The position numbers and the translations under genes are program-made. The notes under the pieces are model-generated. The model saw nothing but the letters and a program-made list of their open reading frames with translations. It ran no database searches and was not told the origin of the DNA. This document shows, in pieces, positions 7,847 to 41,420 of a stretch of 64,000 nt of DNA (positions are counted from its first letter, which is position 1; every line of letters starts with the position of its first letter). The stretch spans positions 1 through 64,000 of the forward strand of contig QPGO01000193.1 of assembly GCA_008632985.1 (NCBI GenBank), read 5' to 3'. The DNA is from Psammoneis japonica. Lineage: Eukaryota.

Positions 7847-8459
7847 GTTCTTAATTTTGACATTGTGATGCCAGCTCTCTATCGGGTCTCTCATCTTTGA
7901 CACGGCAATGTTTTCTCCCGTGTCGTCGCAGGCATCGGACGCACCCAGTACATGATTCAGTATCGTCAATGATAGCTCGTCACCCCGGCCCGGCTTTTCT
8001 GTGTTCAAACGCTGGGTTAGTGAATATCTATATAGCGATACACTGATTGCAAAACTTGTACTATTCATACTTTTGAATCATGTGCTACTTGTCGTTTCTT
8101 GTTGCTCCATAGACACTCCTCGAGCGTTCTGTTTCGATCAGCGTTAGTTCTTCGATTGTGAAACTCGGACAATGGTATTCTCTTTTGTTGCAAGCGCCTT
8201 TTCCCATGTGCTCTGTTGTCTGTTTATAATCAAAGCACTATTGTGAAGTTGTACATTTTACTCAGCCAGTGATGCTGGGAGAATCGCTCCATTTTCGCCA
8301 TGCACTTGTCCGCTTGCTATTGTTAGTCGATCGACATGGGTAGTTAGCAAAAAAGGGTACTCCTTCCGAAAAGCGAGTCAGTCAATTTGAAATAAGAAAG
8401 GATCAATAAATCGCTTTAGAGGAGTCGTTGCAAATTCATCTTCAAAAGACGATCCGAAA

Positions 8460-9884
8460 CTACTGCATGCCAAAATGTCCATTGGCTATTTCTTGAAAAT
8501 GATTTTTGTACCGACGAAGAATCTCCTCCTTTATCATGCGCTCCTCCACCTTAGCGTCCGGGTGAAACTCCATATCCTTCATCCACATGGTTGCGTGATT
8601 CGATATCGCCTGTGCCTCCTTGCTATGGTGCTTTATCCAAATCATTTTCTCTTCCACGTCGCTAATGTCTGTAGCCAACGGAACGTAATGAACCCAAGGA
8701 ACTAGCAACTCTTCCATTGCCCAAGATGTATGCGTGGGTGGTGGCATTAGGACTACAGAGTTCGAAAGTAGAGCCCACTTGAGACCGCTTGCGACATCGT
8801 TGCCCTCCAACATGATGATACCCTTGTACGTTAGCAAGTTTTCGACTGTCACTTTCTCAGATACAATCAATGTCCCGTCAATCGTCCTTGGTAGGCGCTT
8901 TCGAGTCGTAGTCAGTTTAGCATCCACGTAGGGCGAGTGAGCCGTTTCCAGAACCAAACGGCATCTCATCATGCGTTGGCAATTTGCTAGATCCGTCGAG
9001 TGTTTGTTATAGTTCTCCAATGCCCCCGTCAACTGACCCCTAAAGACCGCTACATCTTTTTTATGCTCCCATGGTATATCCACATCCGTTATATTTGGGA
9101 GCAAACGAAAGTGACGATGGGTCGCAAGTTTCCAAACAATCGGAGAAAACTGAGCTTGCCCAAGAAAAGTTGGTAATACAGGCCGCGAAGTCCAATCTAG
9201 GCATTCCCCGTCAGTGACTGCCTTCAACGCTTTACTCGTTGTTCCACTCCGAAACTTCTTCAAGTGAGGAATATTGACCATTCGAAATACATGAGAATGC
9301 TTCATGTCACCAAACTGTAGCAACACGGGAAATGCTGAACCATGTTCAGAGAACAATTTCGGAAGGATAGAAATCATCTCCTTGGCATCCTCACAGTACA
9401 TTCTCATGTTTGAGCGAAACTTAATACGGCCTTTATACTTTGATGGAATACCTTGGTCGGATTGAAGTTTAATCTCGTCCTTAGAACGAGCACAATCAAA
9501 GATAGTTTCTGGCGTGAAGAGGAAGAGCTTATCGGGCTCAATGATACTGCGTACGTCCAACGGATAACTTGAGTTGGATTTGTCAATCACGTTTACTGAT
9601 GGCCATCCATATGCTTCTCTTTTAAACCGATAAGTAGCTTGTTGCTGATTCGAACAAGGCGGAACATACCAGTTGCCCATGTACACCTTGATCCGTTCTT
9701 CGACCGACGGGAATCTCTCGTCTCGATTCGATGCAATGGGAGGAACAACAATCTTCATCGATTCATGCAATGGCGTAAATGGTAACAGAGAAGAAGGATG
9801 GTTTGCAGCATTGACACCACGGAACCATGCTGTGACCACGAGATACTGCACGAGAAAACGCAAACTCATTCGACCGCCGTTCAT
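8460..9884 (-). CDS. Glycosyltransferase family 90 (CAP10/POGLUT-like), signal-anchored
   Basis: 474-aa ORF with N-terminal hydrophobic segment; PWEHKKDVAVFRG, YKGIIMLEGNDVASGLKWALLSNSVVLMP, WAMEELLVPWVHYVP. Confidence 0.88.
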   Translation of the reverse strand: MNGGRMSLRFLVQYLVVTAWFRGVNAANHPSSLLPFTPLHESMKIVVPPIASNRDERFPSVEERIKVYMGNWYVPPCSNQQQATYRFKREAYGWPSVNVIDKSNSSYPLDVRSIIEPDKLFLFTPETIFDCARSKDEIKLQSDQGIPSKYKGRIKFRSNMRMYCEDAKEMISILPKLFSEHGSAFPVLLQFGDMKHSHVFRMVNIPHLKKFRSGTTSKALKAVTDGECLDWTSRPVLPTFLGQAQFSPIVWKLATHRHFRLLPNITDVDIPWEHKKDVAVFRGQLTGALENYNKHSTDLANCQRMMRCRLVLETAHSPYVDAKLTTTRKRLPRTIDGTLIVSEKVTVENLLTYKGIIMLEGNDVASGLKWALLSNSVVLMPPPTHTSWAMEELLVPWVHYVPLATDISDVEEKMIWIKHHSKEAQAISNHATMWMKDMEFHPDAKVEERMIKEEILRRYKNHFQEIANGHFGMQ

Positions 9885-10566
9885 GCCAAAGCCAACCGTG
9901 AGCTGCCGGGTTTGGCAACCGCTCGAAGACGAAATAATGAATCATGTTGCTTTGATCACTCTCACAAGTAAATCAGGTCCGCGTGCTTGTTGTGTTTGTG
10001 ACTAACATCGGATTCGCAAAGAGTGCTTCATTGCGGCTCTCCCTCTCAAGAGAAAGTTTCTCGCAACCCTCATAAAAGTTTATGTATATATAAGGAATTA
10101 AAGGATACATAAAAATCGAAAATCAAAAATTTCAGTTGAGAGCGTATTTAACATATACATCTCTTTTGACAAAGGAATAAATAGGTCCGTTGAAATATTC
10201 ATCGCGCCATTCTGAGGAACGTCCGACACACGTATGATGAAGGGATGAATGATGATATGATTTGCCAACCTTGATAGATCAAGTCCTTGCCGTTATCCTC
10301 TACTTTGCGCTTCCGGTTACTGTTTTAGTGCGCCACACTCTGCATTCCAGAGCTGTCACATGTGACCGACCATAGCATAACAACCGAGAAACGCCAGTAA
10401 ACTAAAACTTTTTCCTCCAGAGAGAGAGAAGAAATATTCTTCCAGTCGCACAGAACATTCTCTATAGTTTTGAGCATACTTAGACTTTGCGTTTCGACAA
10501 GTTTAACATAAAACTATGTACACAGTAAAATGAAAGGTAAACACCGAAGCTTCCGACAAACCATAA

Positions 10567-12030
10567 TCAATCCCTCTCCTCACGAAAATGGGTCTGATAT
10601 CGCCGAATAATCTCCGCCTTGATCAGTCGCTCTTCTCGACGGGCATCGGGGTGGAACTCCATATCTTCCATCCACGCAGTTGCGTGTTTAGAAATAAGCT
10701 GAGATTCCTCTTGGTGTTCAAGTACCCACGCCATTTTTCCCTCTACATCGGAAAGGTCATCACTGAGTGGCACATAGTGAACCCAGGGTTTCAATAGTTC
10801 CTCCATTGCCCAAGAAGTGTGCTTTGGTGTTGGCATGAGGACTACTGACTGACTCAACATGGCCCACTTGAGACCACTAGCAACATCGTTCCCTTCAATC
10901 ATGACAATTCCCTTATAAACCAATAAATCTTGCATTAAAACCCGAGGAGTGACAACAGTCGTTCCGTTGATAACGTCACCAATCCTTTTTCGCGTTGAAA
11001 CAAGCTTGGCGTCGACAAGCTTTGAATCTGCAGAATCTAGTACCAACCTGCATCGTTTCATACGTTGGCAGTTCTCGTAATCAGACTTGTGTAAATCGTA
11101 GCTCTCGAGCGATCCCGTGAGCTGCCCACGAAAAATCGCCATATCTTTTTTCTTTTCCCAGGGCGTGTCTTTTTCCGCCACAAATGATATCAACCCAAAG
11201 TGCCGAGGAGTATTAAGCTTCCAAAGGATTGGAGAATACTGTGATTGGTTATGATTGGTTTGTAGTACCGGTCGAGCATTGGGTGAAAAGCAGTTATTGG
11301 ACGTAACCCTTGCCAACGCCTTGGTGGATGTGCCACTCCGAAATTTCCTTAAGTGAGGAACATTGATCATTCTCAACACATGAGAATGCTTCATGTCCCC
11401 GAATTGCATTAGAATTGGAAATTTAGGTTCCTTTTCTTTCACGTAGACATGCTGAAGGACCGAGATGATTTCCTTTGCGTCAACGCAATAGAGTCTCATG
11501 TTGGTTCGGAACTTGATGCGATCTTCGGTCTTCAATCGGATACCTTTATCATAACTCTTTTGATATACTTCTTCCGATCGAGCACAGTCCATCACAATCT
11601 CTTTGTTAAACCAAAATAACTCATCCGGTTCAATGACGTTGAGTACCTTCATGGGAAAGCTGGAGTTGGTTTGATCAGTGATTACCACGTTGGTCCAGTT
11701 TCCACCCGTGTTGTTAACCTTGTATGTTGCTTGCTCCTGTCCTTGACAAGACGGCACATACCAGTTCCCCATGTAAATCTTGAGTCTCTCCTCGACCGAT
11801 GGGAAACGTGCGCTTCGATCAGATGGTACGGGCGGGACAGTGATTGCGGCTGACGCGGCTACCGCAAAGAAGACATGGCTTAGTAGAACTAGCGACAACA
11901 ACGCATGCCGTGGTTTTACTTGTTTAGGCAATGCTCTGGTCATGTCGATCGGCTTCATCGTAAGGAGGCAATGGGTGCGTTTGGTGCAGATTGTGTTTGC
12001 CAAGATCGCGGGGACTCCTCCTCCCTCCAT
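10567..12030 (-). CDS. Glycosyltransferase family 90, tandem paralogue (true start may be 11958 or 11943)
   Basis: Colinear with the neighbour: RFPSVEERLKIYMGNWYVP, QFGDMKHSHV, IEGNDVASGLKW, WAMEELLKPWVHYVP. Confidence 0.88.
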   Translation of the reverse strand: MEGGGVPAILANTICTKRTHCLLTMKPIDMTRALPKQVKPRHALLSLVLLSHVFFAVAASAAITVPPVPSDRSARFPSVEERLKIYMGNWYVPSCQGQEQATYKVNNTGGNWTNVVITDQTNSSFPMKVLNVIEPDELFWFNKEIVMDCARSEEVYQKSYDKGIRLKTEDRIKFRTNMRLYCVDAKEIISVLQHVYVKEKEPKFPILMQFGDMKHSHVLRMINVPHLRKFRSGTSTKALARVTSNNCFSPNARPVLQTNHNQSQYSPILWKLNTPRHFGLISFVAEKDTPWEKKKDMAIFRGQLTGSLESYDLHKSDYENCQRMKRCRLVLDSADSKLVDAKLVSTRKRIGDVINGTTVVTPRVLMQDLLVYKGIVMIEGNDVASGLKWAMLSQSVVLMPTPKHTSWAMEELLKPWVHYVPLSDDLSDVEGKMAWVLEHQEESQLISKHATAWMEDMEFHPDARREERLIKAEIIRRYQTHFREERD

Positions 12031-12279
12031 CTCGCTTCTTTTTGGGTCACTTTTTGGATTTTAAAATTTTATTACATAATAACGGTTTGTAGAAGTTCAT
12101 TCAATATTTTAACTGGTCTAAGTTTTCCGTTGTAATGAATTCAACGGAATGGGTCGATTTCATTTACGATAGTAAAAAAATAATCAAATGAACATTTATG
12201 TATTTTAAGTTATGTATACAGAGAATTCATCTATGCGCGAACACAACTTGAAGATGGCACAGCGAACGATAGAATTTCT

Positions 12280-17551: not shown

Positions 17552-20500
17552 GATATACACTGTAATGGATGGCTTTCTCTAGGGAAGGGTTGAAAAGTGT
17601 TGCACCGATACGTCACCCTCATTCACCGCCATTCTGTACTTCTAAATGCTCATCGCGTGATGAGTTGGCGCAAAACAGTCACGAGTCGTCGTCACGAATA
17701 GCACCGCTTTGTTCTGAAAATAGATTTCTAGTTTTGTTTTTTTTGAAAATGTCAGCCTCACTCACACACAAACTGTCGGTCATGATGTGTGTGTGTGTGT
17801 GCGTGGCAGTTTTTTTCTTGTGACTGCGAAGAAGCTCGAAAGCGACCAGGTTTGCCGCATGTGCAAATTTCAGTCATTGATTGCATTGTTCCTGCAACAA
17901 TTCACGGTCCGCTGTGACACTGTTCAAAGCATTCTTTCATCTGGCGGATGTTTTGCCGTGGCGCAGGAGGAGTGAGGACAAGAGGGCAGCATCTTCTTTC
18001 TCTCTTGAGTGGCTGAGGAAGGAGGCTGTTGTTGTCAAGAGTTCGCGCAACTTCGTTGCTGCACAGCACCACCCGGTTGATTGTTTTGAAAGTCTTTTTC
18101 AGACTGATGCAACTTCATGAATTGTTGGAGACACACCTGGGAGAAAGATGGTCCATCAAAAACAAGCAGGTGCTTGAGATGTGTTTTCATCCCAGGTGAG
18201 AAATGCGCGTGCAGAGGTGAGACGTTTCGTCTGTCCCTTTTCCATCGCCGTGCTTTTTGTGCAAGCAAATCTGACTGGACTTTCCCCCGATTTTTCGTTT
18301 CTTCTTTCCACAGACATGTTTGTTTTGAAAAGCCAGCCGTTGTTCTCATTGGTTGAAGGGTGCGCACAAGAAAAGCGCTGTCTCGAAAGCGGCATTTTTT
18401 GGAGTGAAGCTGACAGCCATCTGCTCGTTGTTGTTATTCTGGTGCATTTGAGAGACCATTCTGCTGTTTCTTTTGCCGAATCTGACTGCTTTGAAAGAAT
18501 GCATGCATTGTTCATTGTGTGAAGAGCTCACACCAAAAAAGAACGGCGTTCTAACTCTGTTGTTTGCATGAGAAAAATCGGGGGAACTGACTTCGCACGT
18601 GATTTTTTTGCGCGATCGGCCATTTCAAAGATCGACTGATTTGTCGACCTGTGTGGGACACTTGAGTGAATAAAACAATGGGATTGAAATGGCAGCGTCA
18701 AAGTTCAATGTGTGTCCAGTTATTGTGTGATTTGACATGCCTGAGTGGAGTTAAAGATGAAACATTGACAAAATTTCACCGCTCAAAATGACCAGTTCTA
18801 TCTTGGAATAAAATGAAATGGCTGCAACACTGAGACATCGCCAATGGCATTGTTCCACTTTACAACAATGAAACTGTCACACTTGCATCTGAGATTCTTT
18901 ATCCTCACACACCCTCAAAACCGAACACATGACAATTCTCTTGTCGGCAGCAAAAATCTGATGTTGTCGCGCGACCCAAAAGCGTCGTCCATGACGACTC
19001 AAAGTGCAGACGATGCATCATAAGAATCACAGCAACGTGTCATAGAAACATTCTTCATTGTCAGCATCTGGTGTCAAGCAGATGGAGCAGCGCGTTGATG
19101 AGAATCCCACTTCGCAAGCTGAGGAAGAGAGAAAGAGGCATCAAAAATGTCATGAGTCAAAAGGCTGTCCACAAGGCACAACAAAAAACAAAGATCAAAT
19201 TTTCAACCACATCATCGCATTGAGCGTTGTCTCATTGACCTGTCTCGGCATTCTTACCTTCTCAGTCACAACATCCGTTGGTGTAAGAATGGACGAGTTC
19301 ATGGCGACGGCATGGTGCCATTTTCGGTTTGCGCGAATTGTGGTTTGTGGTTCGAGACATGGAAAAATATATTTTTACTGTCATGGAGCTCGTTTTTTAC
19401 TAAGATTTTTGGTGCTAAATGTACGTCTCATGTAGAAACACGTAGAAAACCTCGTGATGTGTCCAAAAGTTTCTCACCCAGGATGAAAACACATCCTTGA
19501 TGCTCCTGGGCATGTTTGAATGCAAGGCGAGCTGAAACATTGTGTCCACAGAAAAAGTTGGAAAAAACACAAACCAAACAGCATGATTGTGCCCTCCATT
19601 CACAATCAATGGGTCAGTTGCTCTCCATTGCTCTTGACTCTGCTGTCCTCCAGTGATTGGTGTGACCAGACCTTGAGCTGGAGCTGGCCAAGGCTGGGGC
19701 AACCCAGATTTGGAGCTCTGGCTGGAGAGCCACAACGGGTGGGTGGCATGGACTGCAAGCAAAGCTCACTCTCAAACTCATCAGCATGGCAGCACAATGT
19801 TGATGAAAGAAAGGAGTGAGCTTGCTTCAACTCATGTGGTGCTCGCGGGCTCATGCACTGCTTCTGCATCAGCCTGGCTGATGCAGAAGCAGATCACGGA
19901 AGACAGCCCCCACTCACGCAGGGGGAGGCACAGACCACTGTCTCTCATTGGTCTCTGATCTGTGATGAATCATCTGCTCACAAAATTGCCCCCGTTGTGA
20001 GATGATGCTTGGTGCTGTCAAGTTGTGTGGTGAGCCATTTGCCAAGTGCTGGCCAGGCCAATGCGCAGCCAAAACACTGGGATTTTTGGCCAAATGGTTC
20101 AACAATCCAACCAGAACAAGCCAGGATTTGACATGGGGCAACAACTTCTTTGGCATCAGCACCCACTTGCAGCAGCACCTGCGTGTGTTTCTGCATGCAT
20201 GCTCTCACAACAATGATGCAACCTTTCTCAGACGGTGTTTGGCTGGGTGGTCCACCCAAGACCATTTTTGCTGTTTCTGCCCATGACACACCTCCATTGC
20301 AGCATGACATGCAATCCTTTTGAGTGAAAAATGACTGTCATTGACACCTTGTGGTTCATGTGCTTGTCATTCTTTTTGGCATTTTTTGCAAACTCAATGC
20401 ATTTTCCAGAGACAGGAGGATTGTCCAGCACAAATTCTGCGCACTTCAGAAATGTCCACCAGTGAACTGCGTGAACCACTTCTGTCTGTGCATGTCAGCT

Positions 20501-21328
20501 GTCAATGATTTTTTCTTCCCTTGCTGGTCAACCAAGTTCTTGACCTCATTTGGTGAAAGTTCTGTCCCCATTGTGGTGCTTGTTGGTGTTCATTTAGACA
20601 AACCACTGGTGCCACCTGACGACATCATCCATCTGCTGTGTGGGTTGGCATTTCTCTGCACAAGATTTGGCATCATAATTCCACTTGAGGGTGACACTCC
20701 TTCCAAATTCCTTCTCATCATGTCATCAAGGCTCCCTGTTTCATGCCTGCAAGTCCTGAACATCCCTTTTTCTGCTGACCAGCTCTGACCAAGATCACTG
20801 CTCTGCACACAGTGGGTTGTTTGCTTTCATTCCCACACCTGCAAGTGTGAAAAAGCAAGGTTTTTCTCCCTGACTTGAGCTGCTTTTGCATCCTCTTCTG
20901 AGCGCAATTGTTCTTTACCGTCATGGTGTGCACACTTTGCATCCATTCCAAAAGAAAGCAATGACCTCCTTCTTGCGCAATTTCGTTTCAATCAGTTGTC
21001 ACTCCTCACAGAGAGCAGTGGAAGTGTGGGTCAGCTCCTGGTGCCAGTGCTGTTGGCTGGGCAAAGGTGTGACAGCACTTAAAATCATTTTTTGATTTTT
21101 TGTGTGCAAGGAGGCAACATGTCCAAAGGATTCATGCAAATTTGCCATGAAAACTTTAGTCCAATGGATCAATGAAGATGCCACACTCAATTGCCTGCTT
21201 GGACATGATCCACAAAACAAAACCAAAATTCCACATTTGTGGTGCTGCTGCGCTTCCACCCTGCAACTCCGGCAACAAGCTAGCCCACACCCCCAGCACA
21301 CTAAAAGTGCGGCAGGAGCAAATGGTGG

Positions 21329-22450
21329 TTAGCCGAGATCGGCATCACCCGAGGGTGACGCCACGCCAAAACAACTTGCGATGGTTCTGGTGCCTCGTGC
21401 AGCCAAACGTTTGGCTTCGCGCATGCTTGATTTAAAGACTGGTTTGAACATGGCCAACCAGTTTCGAATCCGGTGAGCAGAGTGTGACAGGTGTTCTTCT
21501 GCCGAATCAAGGAGGAGCACCTTGTCTCTCGCAAGATGATCGTCTGTGCGAGAATGAATGGCCTTAACCTCTGCTTCTGCGTCTCGTCTTTGAGACGACT
21601 TCCTTGTTTCCGAATCGTGTCCGTGCACAGCATCGTTGTGAGCGTCCCAGAGGTCCCACCACTGCTCCCATGTGAAATTCCCAACAGTTGCAGCCCAATC
21701 CAGCCATTTCTGTTGATCTGAGAGAGTCCGACAAATGCCGCTCGACGAAAGGCAAGAGGTTTGCGTCGCATTCCACTGGACAGAAAAACGGCCATCAAAC
21801 AACTGACGCCAACCTGTTTCCCCTTGGGAATGAATTGCGGGCACGACGCTGTGATGAAATTGTTCCGAGTGCAAAAGCTCGCCTCGAAACCATGCTTCAA
21901 CAGCCGAAATTGTCAAGTCTCGTAAGGAAGGAGACGTGTGAATGTCATCGCACTTCTTGCGCAATCCTTGTAAAAATTTTCTGCGCCAGGCTTCATTGTG
22001 AGGGCAACGGAGAATGTGATCTCTATCTTCCATGGGGTCCTGACAGTGAGTGCAACAGTCCGGACGTGTCGGATTGCATCTGTGTGCAATCTTGTTGGTG
22101 GGCAGAAGATCTTGAACCAGCTTGACGGTGCTGACTTTTCGACGAATGTTTCGTGACATCAATTTTGAATGAACGTCCCAATCAATCGATGCGTGCACTT
22201 CGTCGGACCAACTGTGTTTCTCTTTCATGCACTGAACCAGTGCGGGACTCGACGCCTGACATCTGACAACCGGCTTGCATTTGGAAGAAACAGTGGCTCC
22301 TTGAAGAAGCAGGTTTGCTCGGCAATGAGGCATGCGGGGAGCAGCTTGGACATGATCCACAGTGTGCTCTTCCAAGGTCTGCAGACGATCCTCCATTTGC
22401 ATGTCCAAGGTCTCTTGGCCCAGAAAGATGCTTCTGTCAGCAACTTGGTC
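21329..22450 (-). mobile_element. 3' fragment of a non-LTR (LINE-type) retrotransposon ORF2, post-RNase H / zinc-binding region
   Basis: SIDWDVH...KLVQDLLPT...CCTHCQDPMEDRDHILRCP...Q.ETGWRQLFDGRFSVQW...WDLWDAHNDAVHG matches the C-terminal pattern of LINE ORF2 proteins; 359-aa ORF with zero Tyr. Confidence 0.8.
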
Positions 22451-24326
22451 AATGGTGCTGGCCAGAGCAGGTCAGCCTTCTGCCACAACCTGCTCAAAGG
22501 CGGCACGTGTCTTTGCAAGCAGGAGGGCCTCTTCTTTTTTCCTTTCTTTTCCCCATGACTGGGCCATGAACACTCAGAGGATTCTTGTTTGTCCCAGTCC
22601 CTTGATGGCAAGAGGCTTGGTGCCACACTTTTGGGCAATCTTGTCGAAGTTCAGATGTTTGACAAAGACTCCAATGGATCCAGCAGTGGCAAAAGGTGGC
22701 CATCACCAGGTGATGAGCTTGGCTGGGGATCATGCAGCCCCCACTGGCAGCCACTTGGTTGACGCTCACCATCAAATGAACACCAGATTCCTGAGCCAGA
22801 TGACAAACTTGTGCAGCCACCAATCCACATGTCAACAACCCCCCTCCCATGGTGATTTCACAAGAAGAATGATCTTCAATGGTTTGGGCCATTGCTCATC
22901 TTTTGGTTCAATTTTGGTCAAAGTCATGTTGACTTGTTGCTGTTGTTTGCCACATTTTCTTGGTTTGCACTGACAATTGTCAATGCACCCATTGCTTGAT
23001 TCTTGGTCTCTTTCTCCTCTTTCCTCCAGTGGTTGTTTGCCAATTGTGGCAGTTTCCCACTGCCATTGTTGTGGGGTGCTCAGGGAGGGTTGTGCACTGA
23101 AGGCATGGGCACAATGTTGATGAGTGACAAAGGTGCCAATCTTGGTGAGGTGCGGGGTGTCAAAATTGCCACTCCAATCAGAATCAGATTCAAGGGGGGG
23201 GGGGGGGGGGGGNACCACCTAGACCATTCAATCAAAAGGTCTGGTGTCAGTGCAACCTGATTGAGGGGTTCTCCCTCCTTTCACCTTCTCAAGGGGGGTC
23301 ATTTTTTGCCACTTTTTTTAGCTCGAATTTGGCCGAACAGCTCGTGATTTGCATGATTTGTCCTGAATTTCACCTTGCGTCACCATGGTGAAAACATCAA
23401 GCCATGAGTCTGTGATGGAAATGGCCCATCTGCCAACTCTTGTCCATTTTATGTTTGTTGTGTGTCAAAGGTCACATGTGCCCCAAATGTTTGTAGATGG
23501 ACCACTGCGTTTTGGAGGAATGTCGAGATTGCCATCATCGTCGTGCTTTGATCACGGTGCTTGATGTTCTCATTTTCATGTGCAATTGGGTGCAATGCAA
23601 ATGATTTTTGCATTCAAAAACAGGCACTTTAAAAAATCCCATTTAAATGCCTCAGCAATTCTGGGACAAACGCGGGCGGGGATGACCTCTCTCAAAGAGG
23701 CCAGGCCCAGTGCAGAACACGTGCCCATGCCAAGCTGGGTTTGCCCCCCAAAATGTGTGCAACTCATGCTTGGTGCATGGCGCCTCTTTTTTTTTGTGAC
23801 TGATGGAAAGGCTGAAGACAAAAGATGAAGCAACGGCATGCTTCAGCCCTGTTTGCTCATCTTTTTTGTCTGTTGGGGCAATGCTTCCACACATTCACTG
23901 CAAGTCGGGGCAGCCAAAACACAGAAGTTTGTTGACACACAGCAACAGCAACAACAGCAGCAACAACCTTGATGCTGTCATCGATGCAGCCTGTCGACAT
24001 CAAGATCAACTCATGTTGTGGTGAGAGAAGCGGGTCAAACAGCAAGGATGCACTGGGTTTCCAGGTTGCCCCCAAAACTTTCCGGGGTCTGCTTGCAATG
24101 TCTGATGTCTGCCGTGTGCCGCGCCGCGGTGCCGATGCATGGTCCCACCAAAACCTTGAAATCGGACATCGGCTCTTGGCTCAGACCAAATCAATCCTTC
24201 CATTCCATGGCACGTGTGCATGTTGGAATCTTTTGCATTGCGGCAAGGTCATGATGCGTTGTTGCTGTGACAATTGTGACTTGTTTGTGTGCCCGGAGGA
24301 AAAGTGTTGGTGTGCATCATAGAACG

Positions 24327-25130
24327 ATGTCGACCAAGGCTTTTGACAACATTCTCAAAAAGATCAATGAGACCTCCACAGATCCAAAGGATTGGGAAGA
24401 GTTTGAGAAAAAATGGAGTGAAGTTAAAGAGGCAGGTGACACCGATGAGGAACACTTTGTTTTGGATTTTGATGGACCCTGCCCTCCCTTGGGACTCTAC
24501 AAAAAAATTCTTGCCGACGGTGAGTTCCCTCATGGAGATGAGTTGGAACCTCCCTTGATTTGACTTGTGTTGTTGATTGCCACAAATTCAGGACACTGTT
24601 CAGTCGAACACTGCTGTGCTCTCAAGAAGGATTGTGGCTCCAAAGACAAGGAGGAATGCGCTCACAGATGCAATGAACGTTGGGCGACATCCCACTCCGC
24701 ATTGACGTGGTTGTTGATGGAAGTGTGCGTGAATGAGTCACAAATTTCCAATGTGGAACATGTCGTTGGCTTGATCACCTGCATGGTGACAAAAAATCCC
24801 AAGCTGTGGCAGATCAAACCAACTGCGTTATTTTCAAAAGGCGAAAGAGGTGATCCTTGGAACATGGTTTGTCAACTTTGGGAGAAGGTTGTCAACTTGT
24901 CCGGCATGGACGACAATGAAAAAACTTGACTGGCCAAGGAGCATTTTGTGCTGACTCAAGACAGTTACAAGGCTTTTCTCGAATCCCGCAAAAAGTCGGA
25001 CCTGGAAGTGTTCCTTGCAGCGAAAGGCATTGATTGTCTCCCATTTGAGGCTTTGGATTCTGCTGGCCGACCCAGTGAGAAACACACCTGAAGCTGAAAA
25101 AAGAAGAATGGACAGCATGTGCAGTGAATG
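24327..25130 (+). pseudogene. Degenerate ORF of unknown family interrupted by in-frame TGA stops
   Basis: MSTKAFDNILKKINETSTDPKDWEEFEKKWSEV... reads protein-like in one frame through TGA codons at 24561 and 24927, consistent with CGA->TGA. Confidence 0.45.
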
Positions 25131-27217
25131 GTCTCCTCGTTGCCTGTTGCACCCAGCTCTTCGTTGTGTTTGCGTTTTCCACTCAAACTGTGAAATGGAA
25201 AGCTGTGACCGGCAGCTGGCCAGAGCAGTTCATTTGTGGACAAGGTTCTTGTGTTGCGGTTGACTCGACTGAACAATCACCACTTCTTGAAACCCATGTA
25301 CGAACATTCGGGAACCGGTCTCACAAAGCAGATCGGCAGCATTTCTGAGTGGAGGAAGGAGACAACCACTCAACATCCCTCGAAGCTTCATTCTGCTCAG
25401 GGGTGCACTTGTCCATGCCATGACAGTTTGGATGAGCGGACGAGTTAGGACTTCCAGAACACATCCGGGTTCTTGCAAAATGCCTGTCACAATGGAAGCT
25501 TGACACAGGAACAACTGACAAGCCTTTTGTTCATCGTCGAGGCTCGTCACCACACTGTCAGAGAACCCTTGGCAAGGACTTAGTCTCCTTTGACAACCAT
25601 CGGGGATGATGCATCATTGCTGCTCCCAACTCTTGCTTTTGTCTCCATTTTGACCGACTGGGTTGCTCAGGAACAGAGCGCAGGCCTCGAATGATGACTC
25701 CACTCAGAGCCAAGTTTTTGGTCACTGGAAGCACCCAGTTGTGAAGAAGAGGTGCAGTGGCAGTTCAAGTCATTCATTGTGGAGATGCAAGAATGGTTGT
25801 CCATGCCATTGCCAGCGGGCTTTTTTCTGCTCAGCACCAGAAACCAGGGCTGACCATTTGTGGATCTTGACTGACATGTTCGCAGATGGCTCAATTTCCA
25901 GTGGGCTCCCAACAATGTGAACTCCAGTGCATTTGCCAGCATCTTCACCTTCAAGAAGGAATGGTGCCAAGGGATTTGTGACCTGGATTGTTCCAACTGG
26001 GATGTGGTTCAATGGGCAGACAATGGCACAGAAGTGGACCAAAAATGACGGCCATCATGACCGCCGGCTCCTGTCTGGCCCTCGCACTGTGATTTCCTTC
26101 CTGGTGCTGGTGCTGACAACTGACATCAGCGTGTGCTTTTTAAAACAATCACAGGAGAAAAGGGCAAAGGCAAGAGGATTTGATTTTTGGGATTTTCTGC
26201 TGCACCAGAAAGGTGCGGTGTGCTGCACGCCTCATCGCTGCTGGCAAAAAGCAGCGACATGAGGGTGGTGTGTTGTCACAATGTTTGTCATGCTGGTGAT
26301 CATGTGTCCTGGATTCTTTTGTCTTTGCAAACACTCAGTTTGTTGAGTTTGCAAGAGCACTCATTTGCAAAAGTCCCCCAGAACAGCCCTCGCTCATTTT
26401 CAAACCATCGCGGCAACAGAGAGCTCTGCGCTTTTTCTGCCAGTCACTTTTGATGTGTTCAACATCATTGAATGACTGAGACTTCATCCTGGGGGACTTT
26501 TTTACATGTTCACAACAGTGTGACATGTCATTGTGTCAAGCAGCCATTGCAAAGTCATCGTCAGAGAGGGTTGGAAAGTGTTTGTCATCGTCATCCGCTT
26601 CAAACGGCAACTTGTTGAGCAAATTGCACTCATGTGCACCACCAACGTTGTCTGTCCAAAATTTCAACACCACATTTGGTTTTGTCACTCACTTTTAAGC
26701 TGCTCGTAAATCAACACAAGCGCAAGAGTTCGCAGGTGACATCGCTCCCTCCAAGAGGAGGTGCAGCGAGTTGCGAGTTGGCGCAAAATAGTCACGAAGC
26801 ACCGGTTTCTGAAAATGTCAGCCTCACTCACACGCAAACTGTTGGGTCAAGTGAGTGTGGCACTTTTTTTCTTGTGACTGCGAAGAAGCTAATGACAGCC
26901 ACTTCCATAAGTCATTATATGAAGGTGTCAATAAATATTGTCAGACCGACAATGTCTTGACATTGGTTTTTTCTTCAATGACGCTCACTATCGAACAATG
27001 AGAACGACGAATGAATCCAGGGCTCCACGACTTGATGCTGCCACAACTATCTTGTTGATCTCTTGACACGCTTTTTCTCGATTCTTGATTGAGAAACGTC
27101 AAGATAAGGTAGTAGCTGGTGTGTTTTGGACGGGAGGATACGTCCACATAACGTGAGAAAAAAGAACAAAAAGGTTGAGGTGTTCCAAGAGTAGACAGCC
27201 ACTGCATTCAAAGCACA

Positions 27218-28039: not shown

Positions 28040-28907
28040 ATCCTTGATGAAAGAGTGCGTACGGAATCAATTGAATTATTTACATACTCATATTGCGTGT
28101 AATAAACTGCAGTTCCTCTGCGAAGGAATAGATACAAATTGTATAAGCGAATGATCATACAAAGGCTTTTAACTCCTTTGTGTTACACACCTTATATTGC
28201 AAGACCAAAAGGTGAAAGATTGCCTTCCGTTCGGATAGCATGCTCGAAGAAGCGATGTGATGAGAGAAAAGTTTGCGGCGTCTTCTAGTTTCGCAATGGA
28301 CTGCCCGTACCTGCGTAGCGATCTCTAGCAGTGTTGAAATGAACAAGGCAATCCTGGCGACGCAAGCTCCTTCACTGGTACCGACAGGTCGCGTTGCTTA
28401 GTGAATAAACTAGACGCTACGAGTATGAATGTTCCCGGTCGAATCGTTGAACTCGATAGCATCTAAGTGCGTAGACTAAAGTCTTGGGTGCTCATGAATG
28501 TTTTGACGACATCAACCACCATCGGAAGAGAGTTTTGATTTCGAGCTTTCCAAATTGTCTGAGGTCATTGCGGGTTTTTCAGAAATGTCCATCGAACATC
28601 CTCCAAACAGTATCATTTAACAACTGAAATACTTATCGGACATAATTCTCTTAGACGATAATTTATGCCATCCTGCCCTATAAATACTCAACTTATCCTG
28701 AACTATTGACGAAAACACTATCTTGTCTATCCTACAGGTATGCTGGTATTGGAAACAGTTATGAAGACAGTCATTGTCTGCTCACTTATCACAATAAATG
28801 TTGCTGGTGGAGCAACCTTGACCTCAGTCAAAGCACCCGTTCGCACACATCGCAGGAACTTCTCACTTTTTTGCAAACAGAGTTTCGGCAAAGGGTGCAA
28901 GAAGAAG

Positions 28908-29869
28908 ATGAAGTTCGCCTTTGGCTCGATCGTGAGCATTTGGTGCCTTGTGTCTGTCAACGGCCATGAGGACAGCCCAAAGTACGAAGATGCGCAGGAA
29001 GCTCTTGTCGACAGGCAGTTGTACCGGTACAAAAAAGCCACGCCTAAGCGTGGCGCGTGCTGCTTCTACTACGGAATCAAAGAGTGTCTCGTCCTCAGGC
29101 CTGGAAACTGCTGGAGGAGGGGAGGAAACTATGTAGGAAATGGAACTGAGTGTGCGCCCTACAACAAATGCCCTCATGTTCCGAAACGTACCCCGAAGCC
29201 TACGCCGTATCCTACCCCGAAGCCTGACAAGCCGTATTATTATAAGCCGAAGCCCACGCCATATCCAACCCCGAAGCCCACGCCATACCCAAAGAAGTAC
29301 CCAACTCCGAAGCCCACGCCTTACCCAACTCCGAAGCCCACGCCATACCCGACTCCGAAGCCCACGCCTTACCCTACTCCGAAGCCGACGCCATACCCAA
29401 CCCCGAAGCCCACGCCTTACCCACTCCGAAGCCGACGCCGTACCCTACCCCCAAGCCTTACAAGTACACTCCACCCCCAAAGCCCACTCCTTACCCTACC
29501 CCAAAGCCTTACAAGAAGTACTACCCAACCCCAAAGCCCACGCCTTATCCTACGCCGAAGCCTTACGATCCATACTATTATTACCCAAAGCCGATTGAAC
29601 TTCGAGGATCTTGTTGCTTTAAAGACGAGGGCAAATGCCTTAATCTCAAAAAGCAGCCATGCCTGCGCAAAGGAGGTCACTTTGGCGGTAAAGGCAATCT
29701 TTGTAGCGAGAAGACGTGCCCAGCTGCGTATGGAGCTTGCTGCAAGAAGGATGGCTCTTGCGTCGTGGTCAGGAAGAAGTTTTGCACCAAAGTTAAGGGA
29801 TACTTTGTTGGATTTGGCACCGTCTGCAAGAAGAACACGTGCCCCAAGTATAAGTATCCCTACTATTGA
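28908..29869 (+). CDS. Secreted extensin-like protein: (PTPKPTPY)n repeats flanked by three GA/SCC Cys modules; 1-nt frameshift at ~29421
   Basis: Signal peptide [19 protein letters not shown]. Repeats continue in the shifted frame after 29421, then [12 protein letters not shown]...CP and [11 protein letters not shown]...CPKYKYPYY, stop at 29869. Confidence 0.8.
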
Positions 29870-30430
29870 AGAGCATTCGAGATTGCTGGAGACCTTTTGA
29901 ATGCTCCACCTTAGGATATACGTATTGCATTTTCGAAGCGTACAGCCATTGTTTCATCTCGTGGTGTGACCAATCACGAAACGGCTGTTGCTTTTGTAGG
30001 AAATGTAAATTGTGTTAGGTTCATGTTTTTGTTTGACACTTCGTTTCTTTGCAATAGATTCTTTCTTTCCAACAAGTTTTATGCCAAAACGATTGTGTCA
30101 AGTTCGCGCCTTTTGACAACTCATCTCTCTCTCTCTCTTTCCAGAATATGGTCAACCATTGCCAATAGATTTTTCTGTCTTGGTGACACGGTAAAGCGAA
30201 GGCTACTGTACTCTCTATTCTCTCTACTCTCTAGCTACTAGAGTCTTCCGGGTCCTTTTATTGTCCTGACGCAGGTCGGACGAGAAAGATCGCGATATTT
30301 TTTCACCCTCATTTTTTGTGCGTCGTTTCATCAGTGTTTTCTTTTGTTCTTTTGCTGTTGCGACACGTGCCTTCTAAAATTCGACACCAGCTGCTGCTCA
30401 TACTGTCAAGATAGATTCGTTTCGTTACCC

Positions 30431-31945
30431 ATGCCTTGTGTAAGCTTCCACCGCTCCAGTCTTTGTAGGCTTCTTGTAGCGGCGTTGCTACTGCTCGTGT
30501 CACCTGCATGCCGAGCGCAAGAAGAAAACAAAAAGGTTGCTCTACTGGCAGATCCGCTACAGGCGGACAAGCTTCTCGATTGGATTGCCGAGAATGGTTC
30601 CGCCTTACAAGGACAGTCCTTTGTGACACAGCAGTCCTTGGTAGAACTGCTCAAGTTTGATTTTCGTACCCACTGGGTCAAAATGGATGTGAAAGCTCTC
30701 TCGGATGATGTCGCTGATATTTTGATTGCCGGCATGGCTGCTGCGGGAGAACTTTCTGGCGTGGTGTACTTTCCCGATTTTACGCGTGATAGCAACGCGG
30801 TCCATACCATTGTTCGTGCTTGCGTCGCAAGTCAAATTCCCTTTGCGCTCAACAAGGAAACTGCGAACCTGGCTCTCCGTGGCATTACAAAGGCCCGAAC
30901 CGCTTACCTCATTTTCAATCCCATTGCCGGTCAAGGCGACGCCGAGTCAGAACTGGCTCTGATTCGTGCTACTCTCGAGCCCCAAATGATCCTTCATGTC
31001 GTACTTACGCAAAAGGATCGAGAAGCTTCGGATCAAGCTATTGAAATTGTAAATACTATCAAGGCGAGTCCAGAGTATTCGGATGGAGATACAGCGTCCA
31101 GCATCATTATAGCGTCGGGCGGAGATGGAACCGTTTCTGGTGAGTTTTTTATTCTTTGTTCTTGTTGTCTACACCACTCCATTATAAAAACAACAGCTTC
31201 GCAGTAGTATCTAGCCTCACCCTCTTTTTCTCCAGCCGTGGCGGGAGCCACAATGGGAACCGGTATCCCGCTGGGTGTCATTCCTCGTGGTACCGCCAAT
31301 GCCTTTAGTGTCGCCCTGGGCATTCCAACCGGTGTCCTTGCCGCTTGTCACAATATATTGTTGGGACAGACGCGCAAGATTGACTCAGCCACATGCAATG
31401 AAGTTCCCATGGTGCTCATTGCCGGTCTTGGCTTTGAAGCCGGCATGGTGGATAACGCGTCGCGTGAATTGAAAAATGTGTTGGGACCTCTGGCCTATGT
31501 ATTGGGCGGAGCACAGCAAGTCATTCAACAAGAACCCTTTACCTGCCGTGTGTCTATTGACGACAAGCCACCCAAAGAATTGCAAACCACGGCACTCACC
31601 GTTGCCACGGTTGCGCCTCCGACATCCGTCATGGCTCAATGTTATGGTGTCGTTATTCCCGATGATGGACTGCTGGATGTGACCATTTCAACCGGCACGG
31701 GAGCGTGGAAAGGCTTGCAAGCCTTGGGTTCTCTGGTCGCTTCTGCCATTGTCAAGGAACCTACCAATACGGATGCACTCTTGTGTGTCCGTGCCAAGTC
31801 ACTCACGGTAGAGTGTGATCCGGTACAAAAGGCAGTGATTGATGGTGAAATTCTTGAAATGAATCCAATCCACTTTCAAGTCGTGCCCGATAGTTTGACC
31901 GTGATTGCTCCTCTTGACGAAGCGCCACAAGAAGAGCCGAAATGA
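30431..31945 (+). CDS. Methylglyoxal-synthase-like domain fused to YegS/BmrU-type diacylglycerol/lipid kinase; exons 30431-31139 and 31236-31945
   Basis: AYLIFNPIAGQG, ASGGDGTVS, PLGVIPRGTANAF, AGLGFEA, IDGE. Upstream MGS-like VALLAD...IVRACVASQIPFALNKETA. A 96-bp GTGAGT..CAG intron restores the frame. Confidence 0.87.
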
Positions 31946-32039: not shown

Positions 32040-32740
32040 TGACTAGCAATCACGTTTCCTCGTCTTATGCTCGCTTGACGCTGTTTGCCCACCCAATTTC
32101 CAAGGTTATTTCGTTCCTCTTTGTGCGAATATAATAGGTAACGCAATCTGTATTCTAGACGCTTTTCACGGCCGTGGTCAAGTTTCCCGTCCTTTCTACG
32201 ACGCATGGCCTGTACACACAAAATGACGAAAAGTACAGTGTTGCCGATGGGTGGTGATGAGCCTTCGTCAGGAGCTTCTAGCTGGAGTCTCTCCTTTGAG
32301 GAACGACTTGTCTGCCATTGATTCTGCTGTAACAACCGGTTCATCCATTCAAACTTTGGTTGTACAATGGGCACAGGAAAGACTGACACTCCATCAAATG
32401 ACACAGTCATGTGACACACATTTAACCTCAAGCATCAGGCTTTAATGCTTTGCTGATGCATGCCCATGGAGAGTCAAACTTTTGATGCAAGGAAAATGAA
32501 AAAGGTGGTTGCATTGTGTTTCAACAAGCAGAGCAAAAGGTGAACAGGTGTTTGCAAACCACAGAGATCAAATTTCCCAGCCTTTCTCATTGAACACATT
32601 GCATGCTTGCCCACCTCCTGAGATTCTTTCCACACCTTGCACATGCTCGCATGGAACTGTGCAATGTCCCTTGCATTTCTTGAGTCAAAGGAGAAGTCAA
32701 AACACACCATTTCCCACTGCACAGAGAACATGCGCACCAA
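32040..32740 (-). pseudogene. Scrambled helicase-associated (HA) domain fragments
   Basis: RRRKDGKLDHGREKRLE, EERNNLGNWVGKQRQ and ...MRKAGKFD fragments resembling the HA repeats at 6.6-7.8 kb. Confidence 0.55.
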
Positions 32741-32847
32741 ACAACATCAATTTTTCCAGTCATTTTTCTGGGTTGCTGTTTCTGGCTTCAAAATTGCACT
32801 GGGGGGCTCTGCACAGGGGCCAACAAGGAACAGTGTCACAAACACAA

Positions 32848-33232
32848 CATTTTTCCTTTTGTTTCAATCAAAAATGTTTTTCAAAGTGTGACAAGGCACT
32901 GGCATGTGCTGCGATGTTGCTGTTCATTGTTCCAAGTCAAAAATGGGGCAAATGAATCATCAGTGCAGACATTGTCTCCATGTTGTCACAGCATGTGTGT
33001 CGTCGTTCCAACACGGATTTTGTGCACCATGTTTGTGCACAAACAGCATTTTTCCTTTTGTTTCAGTCAAAATCATTTTTCAAAGTGTGACAATGCATTG
33101 GAATGTGCTGTGATGTTGCTGTTCATTGTTCCAAGTCAAAAATGTGGCAAATGAATCATCAGTGCGGACATTGTCTTCATGTCGTCACAGCGCGTGTGTC
33201 GTCATTCCACAACACGGATTTTGCACACCATG
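32848..33232. repeat. ~199-bp imperfect tandem duplication inside a TpA-depleted island
   Basis: catttttccttttgtttca...gatgttgctgttcattgttccaagtcaaaaatg...aacacggattttg..caccatg occurs at ~32848 and ~33047. Confidence 0.85.
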
Positions 33233-33776
33233 TCTTTTTGTGCAATTGCTCAAACTTGCCAAGTTTGAGCAAATGGTGGTGCAAGTTTGGGAGCTTGGGC
33301 AATTGCTCAAACTTTTGTCGTGGAAAAGCCGAGGCTGGAACGCTCAGTCATGGCCGCCAAATGTTGCTTGGTGTGGTGGTGTTTGCCAATGTCCATTGTG
33401 ACTGCACGCACATGTGCATTTGAGCAGTTTTCCCAAATGGTGCTGCCTCACACACTTGGAGAAGAGTGGCAACACATGCCCACAGGTGCCAGGTGATGCA
33501 AGCCAAAATTTGCACACTGTGAGGTGTTTTCACATCACTTGGCCTCACACCTCACACCTCTGCATTCTCTCTGAGTGCCACATGGACAAACTCTCCTGCC
33601 CTCAATTCTCAGCTCTCTGACAAAGCAAGAAGATTTTGCTGGTGTCTCACCTTGTCTTGGGACCCATGGGGTCTGCAACACACAGCTGCGCAGAACAACC
33701 AACCTCTCAATCGTCACACAGGCCCTGCCACTCTCTGCTCTCTGCCAGCTGGCAGCAGCCAGCTGCCAGAGCTCTG

Positions 33777-34764
33777 GTGTCTAGTCTGCCAGGTTTTTTC
33801 CTCAATTGAGGCAGCAAAAAGCACCTCAATTGAGGTGGTCAAAATGCACCGTGGACAGGAAATAACATGCTGTTTTGGCAAATGACACGACAGACGATGA
33901 TGTCAATTCCATTGCGCAAAGTGGTCTCCACAATGACAATGAAGCTGTTGCAACACTCGTTGCACCTTGCTTTGCATGCACAATGCGCTCGCCTGCACCA
34001 AATTTGAATCTTGATGTCCACAAATTAGCCACAAACGCGGGGTGCGAAAATGGCCCATCACATTCATAAAAACACTTTTGACACACTTTCAGCCACAGCA
34101 TCGTCTCGCATTCAACACATGTTGATGCATCTTGTGCTTGTCATTGTTGATTGTTGTGTTTTGGCGACATGAATTGGCACAAAGATTGTTGATCTCGGTC
34201 GTTTGTTGCGACAGCAATTCTGATGCTGCGATCGCAAATGATGGCCCCTGAAAGCTCCGCACACAACAGCGCACTTCTCTTTGTCACAAAGAAGACATCC
34301 TGCTGTGCATGCAGCATGTGTTTGCCATCGTTGCAGACCCGAATTTTTGAGGTGCCATTTTTTGCATTTTGCGCTTGACCCCTTTTTTTTCGACTGTCAG
34401 CTCGATTTCGAGACTCGGACTGCCATGACAAGGTCTTCCTTGTTGTGTTGCACGATTCTGTTTAAAGGTAGATTGTTGAGAGAGTCCCAGAGTTTGTAGA
34501 ACGGCGGTCGCATCATCGTCAAAGTGCCAAAATTCGCGCACATTTGGCATGCGCATGTTTGCATGCCAACAAGTGAAGAAGAAAATGTGCTGTCGAGTGC
34601 GAACAAAGAGCCCAACTGTTGCCCCAAGAGGTTTTAAAGCATGGAGAACAACATTCTAGTGTCACTTAGGGGCTACAACGGTTTTAGCGATTTAGCGAGG
34701 GGGGTCGAAAAACTACCTCAATTGAGGTTTTTACCTCAATTGAGGTGCTTGGTAGACTAGACAC
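33777..34764. mobile_element. Non-autonomous TIR DNA transposon (~1 kb) with paired palindromic subterminal motifs
   Basis: Left gtgtctagtctgccagg vs reverse complement of the right end gtgtctagtctaccaag. CCTCAATTGAGG palindrome twice at each end (33800, 33824, 34716, 34734). Flanked by TG (left) and TA (right). Confidence 0.8.
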
Positions 34765-38781: not shown

Positions 38782-39089
38782 ATCTAACTTCAGTAACAGA
38801 CTGCATCGCAATGAAAGATGCTGATGACGATGAGATGATACGATTGCGATGCTATGACACGAAATTGTACGGAATCGAAATAAAGCCCTACAGACATGAA
38901 GGAAATTCAATGAAACGCGTCAGCAGGAGCATAAGTAGTTTTTGGCGGGAAATCCCCATGGCACCGCAGTAGAAAGGGCCCACAACATGACGGCCGGGTG
39001 GACCGGCTGTTTGGTCTAGCTCTCTAGCTAGAGGGGGTTTACGGCAGGCTTTAGTTCGAGGCGGTCCTACAATCTCTTAGTTCTTTTAA

Positions 39090-41420
<2,331 letters not shown>

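Follow-up and report, generated by a model that had tools for sequence, protein, structure and literature searches.

The stretch analyzed here is 64,000 nucleotides of contig QPGO01000193.1 (assembly GCA_008632985.1, positions 1 to 64,000, forward strand) from the diatom Psammoneis japonica, and is called the window below. It holds genes that are long uninterrupted open reading frames (ORFs), including a GAF-HisKA-HATPase-receiver kinase, two GT90 paralogs and HA-domain helicases, and it also holds blocks of mobile or pseudogenised DNA in which the dinucleotide TA is nearly absent. An earlier note on this DNA had read these blocks as the footprint of a mutator that turns TA into TG or CA, and that reading is the subject of this report. 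TA-poor islands were called with sliding 1-kb windows and a two-state segmentation on TA positions. The observed/expected ratio (o/e) of TA in the sliding windows is 0.4-0.9 over most of the window and 0.00-0.17 in several blocks; the segmentation gives six islands, which together occupy 25.7 kb (40% of the window) and contain 107 TA (o/e 0.06). The remaining 38.3 kb contain about 1,590 (o/e 0.59).

The first island (4715-7449, plus strand; TA o/e 0.08, CG o/e 0.81) carries a helicase-HA gene copy. The next two make up most of the region 17660-26890: a high-copy repeat forms its left part (17730-19254, TA o/e 0.10), and degraded, mostly unclassifiable repeats fill 19444-26889 (32 TA in 7.4 kb, o/e 0.07, CG 0.44). 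An unclassified repeat lies at 32444-34462 (4 TA, o/e 0.03, CG 0.43), a further island at 39088-41426 (3 TA, o/e 0.02, CG 0.25), and the terminal island at 54402-64000 reaches the window end (44 TA in 9.6 kb, o/e 0.07, CG 0.59). At the background rate the region 17660-26890 would hold 384 TA rather than the 57 observed (Poisson log10 P -96); the corresponding values for the other islands run from -22 to -113. The earlier note's estimate by eye of some 30 TA in 19.8-26.9 kb proved close, as the count is 33 against about 295 expected at the background rate. One further block that it had listed, at 48.2-48.4 kb, was rejected as an erased island: it consists of one gap of 199 bp without TA, and chance alone would put about 0.4 gaps of this length in the background.

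The island borders are sharp to about 10 bp. For instance, TA recurs at a spacing of about 10 bp until 39087, only three occur in 39088-40577, and they are dense anew from 41427; the borders at 7450, 17729/17730 and 26889/26890 are equally sharp. No island of intermediate TA level appeared in the sliding windows. The process is thus confined to six sharp islands, and genes, intergenic DNA and duplicates of genic DNA are TA-normal, as the earlier note had said of the neighboring DNA. It had also noted that TG and CA are abundant in the islands, and this too is borne out: TG rises from an o/e of 1.20 outside to 1.64 inside, and CA from 1.17 to 1.72. CG falls from 0.98 to 0.53, and ranges by island from 0.25 to 0.81, so that CpG decay is present in every one. 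The combined TA and CG deficit (0.98 o/e units) is matched by the TG and CA surplus (0.99), while GC content stays nearly constant (0.45-0.51 in islands, 0.46-0.48 outside). TG and CA are raised equally in each island. (Note that in the island 39088-41426 both ratios are inflated by an (AC)231 microsatellite with 100% matches, found by Tandem Repeats Finder at 40578-41039 directly after a single N at 40577; this could be a genuine array or assembly filler.)

As judged from domain and homology searches, the recognizable content of the islands is of two kinds, helicase-HA gene copies and one fragment of a long interspersed nuclear element (LINE). Helicase-HA copy a (homology to copy b at 4661-7440, plus strand) has Pfam ResIII, Helicase_C and HA domains; its frame-broken ORFs lie at 4803-5840 and 6071-6937, and HA-repeat units of 204 bp lie at 6664-7350, all on the plus strand. 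Copy b (54448-57208, minus strand) lies in the terminal island and is also frame-broken. A further helicase fragment at 62786-63130 in that island was found by tblastn with helicase homologs. The LINE fragment (21347-22354, minus strand) is a 5'-truncated C-terminal piece of ORF2, inside an open frame at 21332-22471 on the same strand. Its homologs are the C-termini of proteins of 742-1,925 aa, one of which has an Exo_endo_phos domain. No viral domains were found in the island ORFs.

The two families allow the direction of change to be read. An exhaustive profile-free search found 51 helicase homologs, of which the best 20 were aligned. Tyr makes up 0.6-5.3% (mostly 1-3%) of the 27 best homologs, and 0-1 Tyr are present in the window copies. 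Tyr occurs in at least 30% of the 20 homologs at nine alignment columns; in these copies a and b together read Tyr at none of 18 positions. In eight of the nine, both copies have TGY or CAY codons (11 Cys, 5 His), and the ninth is Trp in both. The copies differ from each other in five of these eight columns. When the threshold is raised to at least 60% Tyr, all three remaining columns read His in one helicase copy and Cys in the other. Thus the YVTP of homologs is HVAP in copy a and CVTP in copy b, and CTYQSLP is CTHKSLP in copy a and CTCKSLP in copy b. Changes of Leu to Pro or Ser and of Ile to Thr match CTA, TTA and ATA becoming CCA, TCA and ACA; changes of Arg to His, Cys or Gln are the mark of parallel CpG decay. 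The LINE fragment gives the same picture. Its ten Tyr columns read five Cys, one His, two Leu, one Phe and one Val, without any Tyr. The earlier note had described a 359-aa LINE fragment free of Tyr; the absence of Tyr holds, but the frame runs for 380 aa from stop to stop (13 Cys, 23 His). Its examples KAIH, IASCF and QGETGW also hold, with codons CAT, TGT and ACA where homologs have Tyr, Tyr and Ile.

Comparison of the two helicase copies points the same way. They are identical at 2,336 of 2,784 aligned columns (84%), and the commonest dinucleotide difference between them is the adjacent double change CA<->TG, which occurs at 52 sites; the next double change occurs at nine. The predicted excess of TA to TG/CA over other changes is present, and it is large. 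How much of it could come from CpG? When a two-copy decay model is fitted to the CG sites (75 shared, 74 lost in one copy), it attributes about nine of the CA<->TG sites to CpG decay. The roughly 43 that remain fit about 100 ancestral TA, converted independently in each copy to TG or CA at random, and 2.8 kb of background-like sequence would also hold about 100 TA. A tandem pair within the terminal island (59090-59683 and 59689-60311), among its unclassified repeats, has CA<->TG as its second commonest difference (8 cases). In both polarizable families, then, the ancestral state was TA, and in the helicase family each copy lost it separately.

Both strands are hit. Of the 52 sites where the copies disagree, 22 read TG in copy a and 30 read CA, with the opposite in copy b, and these fall in 26 runs along the sequence against 26.4 expected, so that no strand clustering of the sort seen in single rounds of repeat-induced point mutation (RIP) was found at these sites. 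Tyr to Cys and Tyr to His changes both occur within single copies, with no consistent sense-strand bias, and this speaks against a mechanism that follows the transcribed strand. The loss is also fast. Outside pyrimidine-purine sites the copies differ at 227 of 2,757 aligned positions, with a transition/transversion ratio of about 0.9, whereas per-copy survival is about 0.13 for TA and 0.67 for CG. By rough estimate TA turnover in the two copies is tens of times that of ordinary sites and several times that of CpG, and because of saturation this estimate is a lower bound. The earlier note's separation of TA loss from the decay of 5-methylcytosine (5mC) is borne out, as CpG decay is present in the islands yet distinct and less advanced.

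The bases flanking TA matter as well. Survival was taken as TA density in the islands divided by background density (a strand-resolved tetranucleotide tally was too noisy for use). RTAY sites (ATAT, ATAC/GTAT and GTAC) survive at 0.00-0.02; CTAC/GTAG, CTAT/ATAG and CTAG at 0.06-0.08; sites with one 5' T or one 3' A at 0.12-0.29; and TTAA at 0.57. In the helicase copies TA is kept at 28 copy-sites, of which 22 have T before or A after, as do five of the six sites that keep TA in both copies. This argues for resistance of these contexts rather than for newly created TA. At the start of copy a, beside a gene, the first ~55 bp (4661-4714) lie just outside the island and keep two TA that are converted in copy b. 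Their contexts, ATAC and CTAC, are otherwise extinct, and the spared segment hints that the process acted in place over a domain and not before insertion.

Are the bases genuine? Among public runs, one DNA run of the same organism (X1) contains 79% of the sampled words of the region. Its contigs, 0.7-1.9 kb long, differ from the islands at 0-3 positions: none at 19935-20741 and 22316-23212, three at 23632-25503, and two at 25476-26175. Contig depth is 56-71 in the islands against 61 in the flanking single-copy genes, and contigs of this kind would not result if two readings were mixed at each site. The TA-free sequence is therefore real, as a read check proposed with the earlier note was meant to establish. 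Summed X1 depth reaches 2,000-9,700 at 18.3-19.7, 21.0-21.7 and 23.0-23.7 kb, and 1,700-9,700 across the island 17730-19254 against about 61 in flanking genes, showing that these parts are high-copy. Among X1 contigs, other genomic copies vary by adjacent CA<->TG at 21478/9, 22129/30 and 22194/5.

We consider it very probable that the islands record an in-place, domain-targeted hypermutation of DNA, from TpA to TpG or CpA, in silenced, repetitive or pseudogenised sequence. In such a process an A:T to G:C transition would occur at the A of 5'-TA-3' on either strand, independently from site to site. It would have acted after the copies separated, to near saturation and several times faster than CpG decay in the same islands, leaving the neighboring genes and intergenic DNA alone. 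Its dependence on flanks would wipe out R-TA-Y and largely spare T-TA-A, and its products would lack Tyr codons, TAA and TAG stops and other TA-containing signals. The role would presumably be genome defence. The data above show the ancestry of TA, the action on both strands, the independence of the copies, the confinement to islands, the genuineness of the bases and the preference for flanks; chemistry, targeting and role are inferred from them. The core of the earlier proposal, an A:T to G:C mutator acting at TpA on both strands of repeat or silenced DNA, agrees with the Tyr columns that read TGY or CAY and with the equal rise of TG and CA.

That note had not recognized the pattern as a described system, and here it needs correction, because the same signature has been reported very recently, in a 2026 preprint on the chlorarachniophyte Bigelowiella natans (Mettrop et al., bioRxiv 10.64898/2026.01.13.699255). 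The main text of this preprint describes TpA to TpG/CpA hypermutation that strikes integrated viral DNA de novo: the rate of mutation in two integrated viral regions of mutation-accumulation lines is about 1000-fold above that of the remaining genome, 230 of their 231 mutations are A to G or T to C, and all of those are at TpA. The hypermutation is limited to some lines. The preprint also gives 124 clusters of windows poor in TpA and rich in CpA and TpG, and 324 low-TpA coding sequences enriched in reverse transcriptase (RT), endonuclease-RT and DDE domains. The region derived from nucleocytoplasmic large DNA viruses (NCLDV) has a TpA Rho of 0.45, and the virophage region is not depleted. Its authors propose an ADAT2-like deaminase as the enzyme and read the process as a genome defence, likening it to RIP. 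In the literature searched for depletion or hypermutation of TpA or TA, with or without a restriction to diatoms, this preprint was the only relevant find (most subscription journals were outside the scope), and searches on adenine deamination, ADAT2 or DNA editing returned nothing further of relevance.

On this reading the process in the window is of the same kind as that in the B. natans lines. As in what the preprint's main text describes, A:T becomes G:C at TpA, giving TpG or CpA according to strand (16 of 16 helicase and 6 of 10 LINE residues), only certain foreign or silent regions of an otherwise normal genome are changed, and TpA depletion goes with CpA and TpG enrichment, RT-type elements included. 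There are also differences. B. natans belongs to the Rhizaria, and the host here is a diatom (Stramenopila); the footprint here is saturated (o/e 0.02-0.10); and what is hit in the window is debris of transposons together with pseudogenised helicase-HA copies, no viral genes being recognized. A viral target is perhaps not a defining feature, since the preprint extends the footprint to RT and DDE sequences. CpG decay alongside TpA erasure is a feature of the diatom islands that sets them apart from B. natans, and the preference for flanks and the independent resolution of paralogous copies are results from the diatom window. De novo events, on the other hand, are reported for B. natans and not for this window. 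The main text of the preprint uses neither 'context' nor 'trinucleotide' and is silent on diatoms; its Tables S2 and S6-S11 may bear on flanks or transposable-element targets. Gene structure differs too, with an average of 8 introns per gene in B. natans (Table 1, PMC13746701) and long, intron-free genes in the window.

As to chemistry, the most likely candidate seems to be an enzyme, ADAT/TadA-like or derived from a toxin, that deaminates the adenine of TA to inosine in duplex or replicating DNA. It is favored because ADAT and TadA naturally target an A that follows U or T, and the equal use of strands without runs, together with dependence on both flanks, suggests an enzyme working on duplex or freshly replicated DNA. 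The same process could instead run through thymine: 5-hydroxymethyluracil (5hmU), 5-formyluracil (5fU) or a base-J-like mark, set at silenced TpA by a TET/JBP-type enzyme, would mispair with G and give T to C. Because TpA is a palindrome, a mark set symmetrically and maintained would yield TG and CA in equal measure without strand runs, as observed; dependence on both flanks of a 4-bp site suits an enzyme reading duplex DNA; and CpG decay in the islands (CG o/e 0.25-0.81) shows that they bear at least one mutagenic epigenetic mark. In dinoflagellates 5hmU is said to favor TpA or TpC, and 5-formyluracil mispairs with G. For diatoms, however, no account of 5hmU or base J is known to us (no search was aimed at this point), the sequence pattern is the same as that for adenine deamination, and the B. 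natans authors, from candidate genes only in the preprint's main text, favor deamination. On balance we regard thymine chemistry as unlikely, though as the strongest of the alternatives.

What directs hypermutation to the islands is most likely a silenced or 5mC-marked chromatin state rather than sequence duplication; CpG decay in all of the islands would fit targeting by a silenced, cytosine-methylated state. The alternative is a RIP-like trigger, in which duplicates above some threshold of length and identity are recognized by pairing and then mutated with a different chemistry. Most of the islands are repeats, some very high-copy, and the erasure of copy a coincides with the repeat unit. 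Duplicates of genic DNA speak against such a trigger. A 605-bp tandem duplication at 2086-3293, 97.5% identical and directly 3' of the histidine-kinase ORF, is TA-normal and served as a control for duplication without erasure; it and a 560-bp pair (82%) hold 23-28 TA per copy without any excess of CA<->TG, although length thresholds and the timing of the duplications could matter for both pairs. Duplication alone is therefore not the trigger. About 3 kb of the main island is at single-copy k-mer depth (though diverged copies share no 31-mers), and the hypermutable NCLDV region of B. natans is, according to the preprint's main text, single-copy. A homology trigger is accordingly improbable in our view. 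The earlier note had left the guide as chromatin or repeats; confinement to silenced or repeat DNA stands, and repeat guidance in the sense of RIP is not supported, as duplicates outside the islands are untouched.

Editing before insertion, in which an ADAR/ADAT-like enzyme would convert A to I at UA in RNA, or a deaminase would act on cDNA, prior to reverse transcription, has features in its favor. One island part is a LINE fragment, edges as sharp as the elements themselves would follow, and the preprint's main text notes that ADAR and ADAT/TadA favor U before the edited A (10.64898/2026.01.13.699255). Such editing predicts a single polarity, however, and single copies carry TA to TG and TA to CA about equally and without runs. 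Since strand choice is random along the sequence, RNA or single-cDNA-strand editing is ruled out as the source of this pattern. Moreover, the helicase-HA copies show no sign of retro-copying (a 3' poly(A) is absent), copy a escaped over its first ~55 bp, and the B. natans mutations, by the preprint's account, appear while clones grow, in single-copy DNA already resident in the genome. We judge the probability of pre-insertion editing to be very low.

Another possibility is that no mutator is involved, and that the elements, or a foreign donor of them, were always TA-poor, for example through avoidance of UpA. TA is indeed under-represented throughout the window (background o/e 0.59), and many islands lack homologs with which changes could be polarized. 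The homologs, however, with a Tyr content of 2-4%, carry Tyr where the window copies read Cys or His, and the two helicase copies have resolved the same sites differently. Further evidence came from a metagenome scan with the helicase alignment, in which 80 loci were kept. The sole close relative among them (L001, 49% amino acid identity) has a TA o/e of 0.61. A second (L002, 29%) is also TA-normal, and the other 78 are distant, with TA o/e of at least 0.31 and without TG/CA excess. No second TA-erased locus was found among the 80, which carries little weight because diatom repeats are rare in those data. The TA-normal relative and the Tyr of the homologs exclude intrinsic composition for the two polarizable families, and selection on RNA or protein cannot maintain an o/e of 0.06 in frame-broken pseudogene copies. 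The TA-free state is thus not intrinsic, a point that the earlier note had named as needing a test, and composition or selection as a full explanation is scarcely credible.

Finally, a sequencing or assembly artefact, with TA intact in the cell and a modified base misread as G (C on the other strand), could by misreading each strand separately produce a random TG/CA consensus that mimics independent conversion, and the assembly does contain single-base Ns, but it can be set aside as highly improbable since X1 contigs reproduce the islands to within 0-3 differences, at a depth (56-71) like that of the flanking genes (61) and without the 50:50 k-mer mixture to be expected, majority calls on such a mixture would also yield TA and CG where TA is nearly absent and CG depleted, and the B. 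natans changes are described in the preprint as heritable new mutations called from Illumina reads.

Several points weigh against the interpretation as in-place hypermutation, or limit it. The polarized evidence comes from two families only, helicase-HA and one LINE fragment, and for the other islands, which are unclassifiable, we infer erasure from composition only. The number of CA<->TG sites expected from CG rests on a simple, rough two-copy model, and the edge effect in copy a is a hint from two sites. A 189-bp TA-normal patch lies inside the composite island (see below). X1 is possibly the assembly's own sample, and Logan contigs drop minor variants, so that a low-level mixture of bases is possible. 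The footprint comes from one assembly, in which past and present activity look alike, and adenine deamination and mutagenic thymine modification both predict the pattern seen.

Among other known systems, fungal RIP resembles the process: it likewise brings about dinucleotide-dependent transitions on either strand of DNA that is non-genic or repeated, and it leaves sharp islands and inactivated ORFs. In Neurospora, RIP converts CpA to TpA, and the RIP enzymes are cytosine-methyltransferase-like, with no obvious way to change A or T. RIP thus changes C to T, creates TA and lowers GC, whereas here TA is destroyed and GC little changed; the earlier note's statement that RIP is opposite in direction fits the loss of TA at a GC content of 0.45-0.51 in islands and 0.46-0.48 outside. 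RIP is also triggered by duplication, unlike the process seen here, which leaves duplicates outside the islands untouched. In some basidiomycetes RIP acts in a TCG context (PMC3318451). CpG decay through 5mC resembles the process in turning a palindromic dinucleotide into TG or CA in silenced repeats, and in the same islands, but it does not remove TA, the loss of which is further advanced than that of CG (survival ~0.13 against ~0.67).

Hypermutation by ADAR/ADAT or APOBEC enzymes is likewise a matter of transitions directed against selfish nucleic acids, driven in those systems by deaminases. These act on RNA or single-stranded cDNA with one polarity, unlike the equal polarities per copy and the resident DNA seen here, and APOBEC changes C and not A. 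In E. coli, Vsr very-short-patch repair is a biased repair of T:G mismatches that turns TA words into CA or TG words and has been proposed to deplete CTAG. Vsr repair is bacterial, genome-wide, tied to the Dcm context and weak, unlike the diatom process, which is targeted to loci and close to saturation.

The window provides a second, distant lineage for TpA hypermutation, in which transposons and gene-copy pseudogenes are erased to saturation. Relative to what the B. natans preprint's main text covers, what is new is the lineage, the saturation, the types of target, the co-occurrence with CpG decay, the independent resolution of paralogs and the flank preference. Tentatively, we raise the broader possibility that this is an old chromatin-targeted defence spread across the stramenopile-alveolate-rhizarian (SAR) group (at least Rhizaria and Stramenopila), whose enzyme, a double-stranded DNA adenine deaminase or the writer of a mutagenic thymine mark, would read the duplex 4-bp site R-TA-Y in resident DNA, and which in diatoms would saturate every silenced class of sequence alongside 5mC and be a main reason why their transposon debris is unrecognizable to homology searches.

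If the interpretation is correct, a defence like RIP but chemically opposite to it rewrites the TA of silenced DNA in a second, very distant eukaryotic lineage, and the B. natans observation becomes a candidate for a general mechanism of SAR algae; the defence may be widespread. It would also explain why repeat annotation fails in diatoms, where erased elements become pseudo-ORFs that are free of Tyr, rich in Cys and His, devoid of TAA and TAG and without Pfam matches. TA o/e would become a simple compositional marker for silenced DNA, and models of mutation rate and composition built on a universal GC to AT bias would be in error over a large part of such genomes, 40% of this window being erased. 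Diatoms can be transformed and knocked out, and methylomes and histone maps exist for them. These tools make a search for the enzyme practical; it might prove to be a natural editor of adenine in DNA that prefers defined flanks.

The erased islands are also a trap for gene callers. With TAA and TAG gone, TGA is the sole stop left, which produces many long spurious open frames (for example 21332-22471, 39154-40371 and 4803-5840). In all, the islands hold 119 ORFs of at least 90 aa on both strands, Tyr-free and rich in Cys and His. Pfam gave no credible match for 79 further island ORFs of this size or for the 38 scanned at 17.7-26.9 kb, the one weak match, to metallothionein, lying far under its cut-off. 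The frame at 39154-40371, of 406 aa and within the island 39088-41426, has no Pfam match, and in the island 32444-34462 a 199-bp tandem unit was found by Tandem Repeats Finder at 32844-33233.

The composite island 17730-26889 has direct repeats of ~90 bp, ~80% identical, at both of its outer edges (17744-17836, and 26806-26890 at the end of the island 19444-26889). They suggest a single large element bounded by terminal repeats or else a repeat family present in two copies. Between its two parts lies the 189-bp TA-normal patch at 19255-19443 (10 TA, o/e 0.65, CG o/e 1.38), which may have been inserted later, or may be host DNA that was spared between two insertions. It was also considered as a known RNA gene and rejected as such, since tRNA and Rfam scans of the window, the patch included, gave no match.

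The helicase-HA family has long tails of repeated HA domains, and in several of its homologs the N-terminus is hydrophobic and resembles a signal peptide, an unusual trait in a helicase. The histidine kinase has relatives at 49-53% best identity, and those with organism names are all from diatoms (Cylindrotheca, Nitzschia, Leptocylindrus, Amphora, Epithemia, Entomoneis and Thalassiosira among them). The GT90 paralogs (8463-9941 and 10570-12060, both on the minus strand) share ~64% nucleotide identity over 1.25 kb, are TA-normal and look like an ordinary tandem gene pair. Among the public runs listed for the region, none is recorded as RNA. One of them (X2) covers some genes only and may nevertheless hold transcripts, as one of its contigs skips 96 bases with GT..AG ends at 31138-31235, which looks like a spliced intron in a diacylglycerol-kinase-like gene. 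Lastly, the ORF at 28710-29897 is rich in Tyr (21 in 396 aa) and contains 24- and 54-bp tandem repeats at 29189-29566, where TA o/e reaches about 1.0, the maximum in the window and in contrast with the islands.

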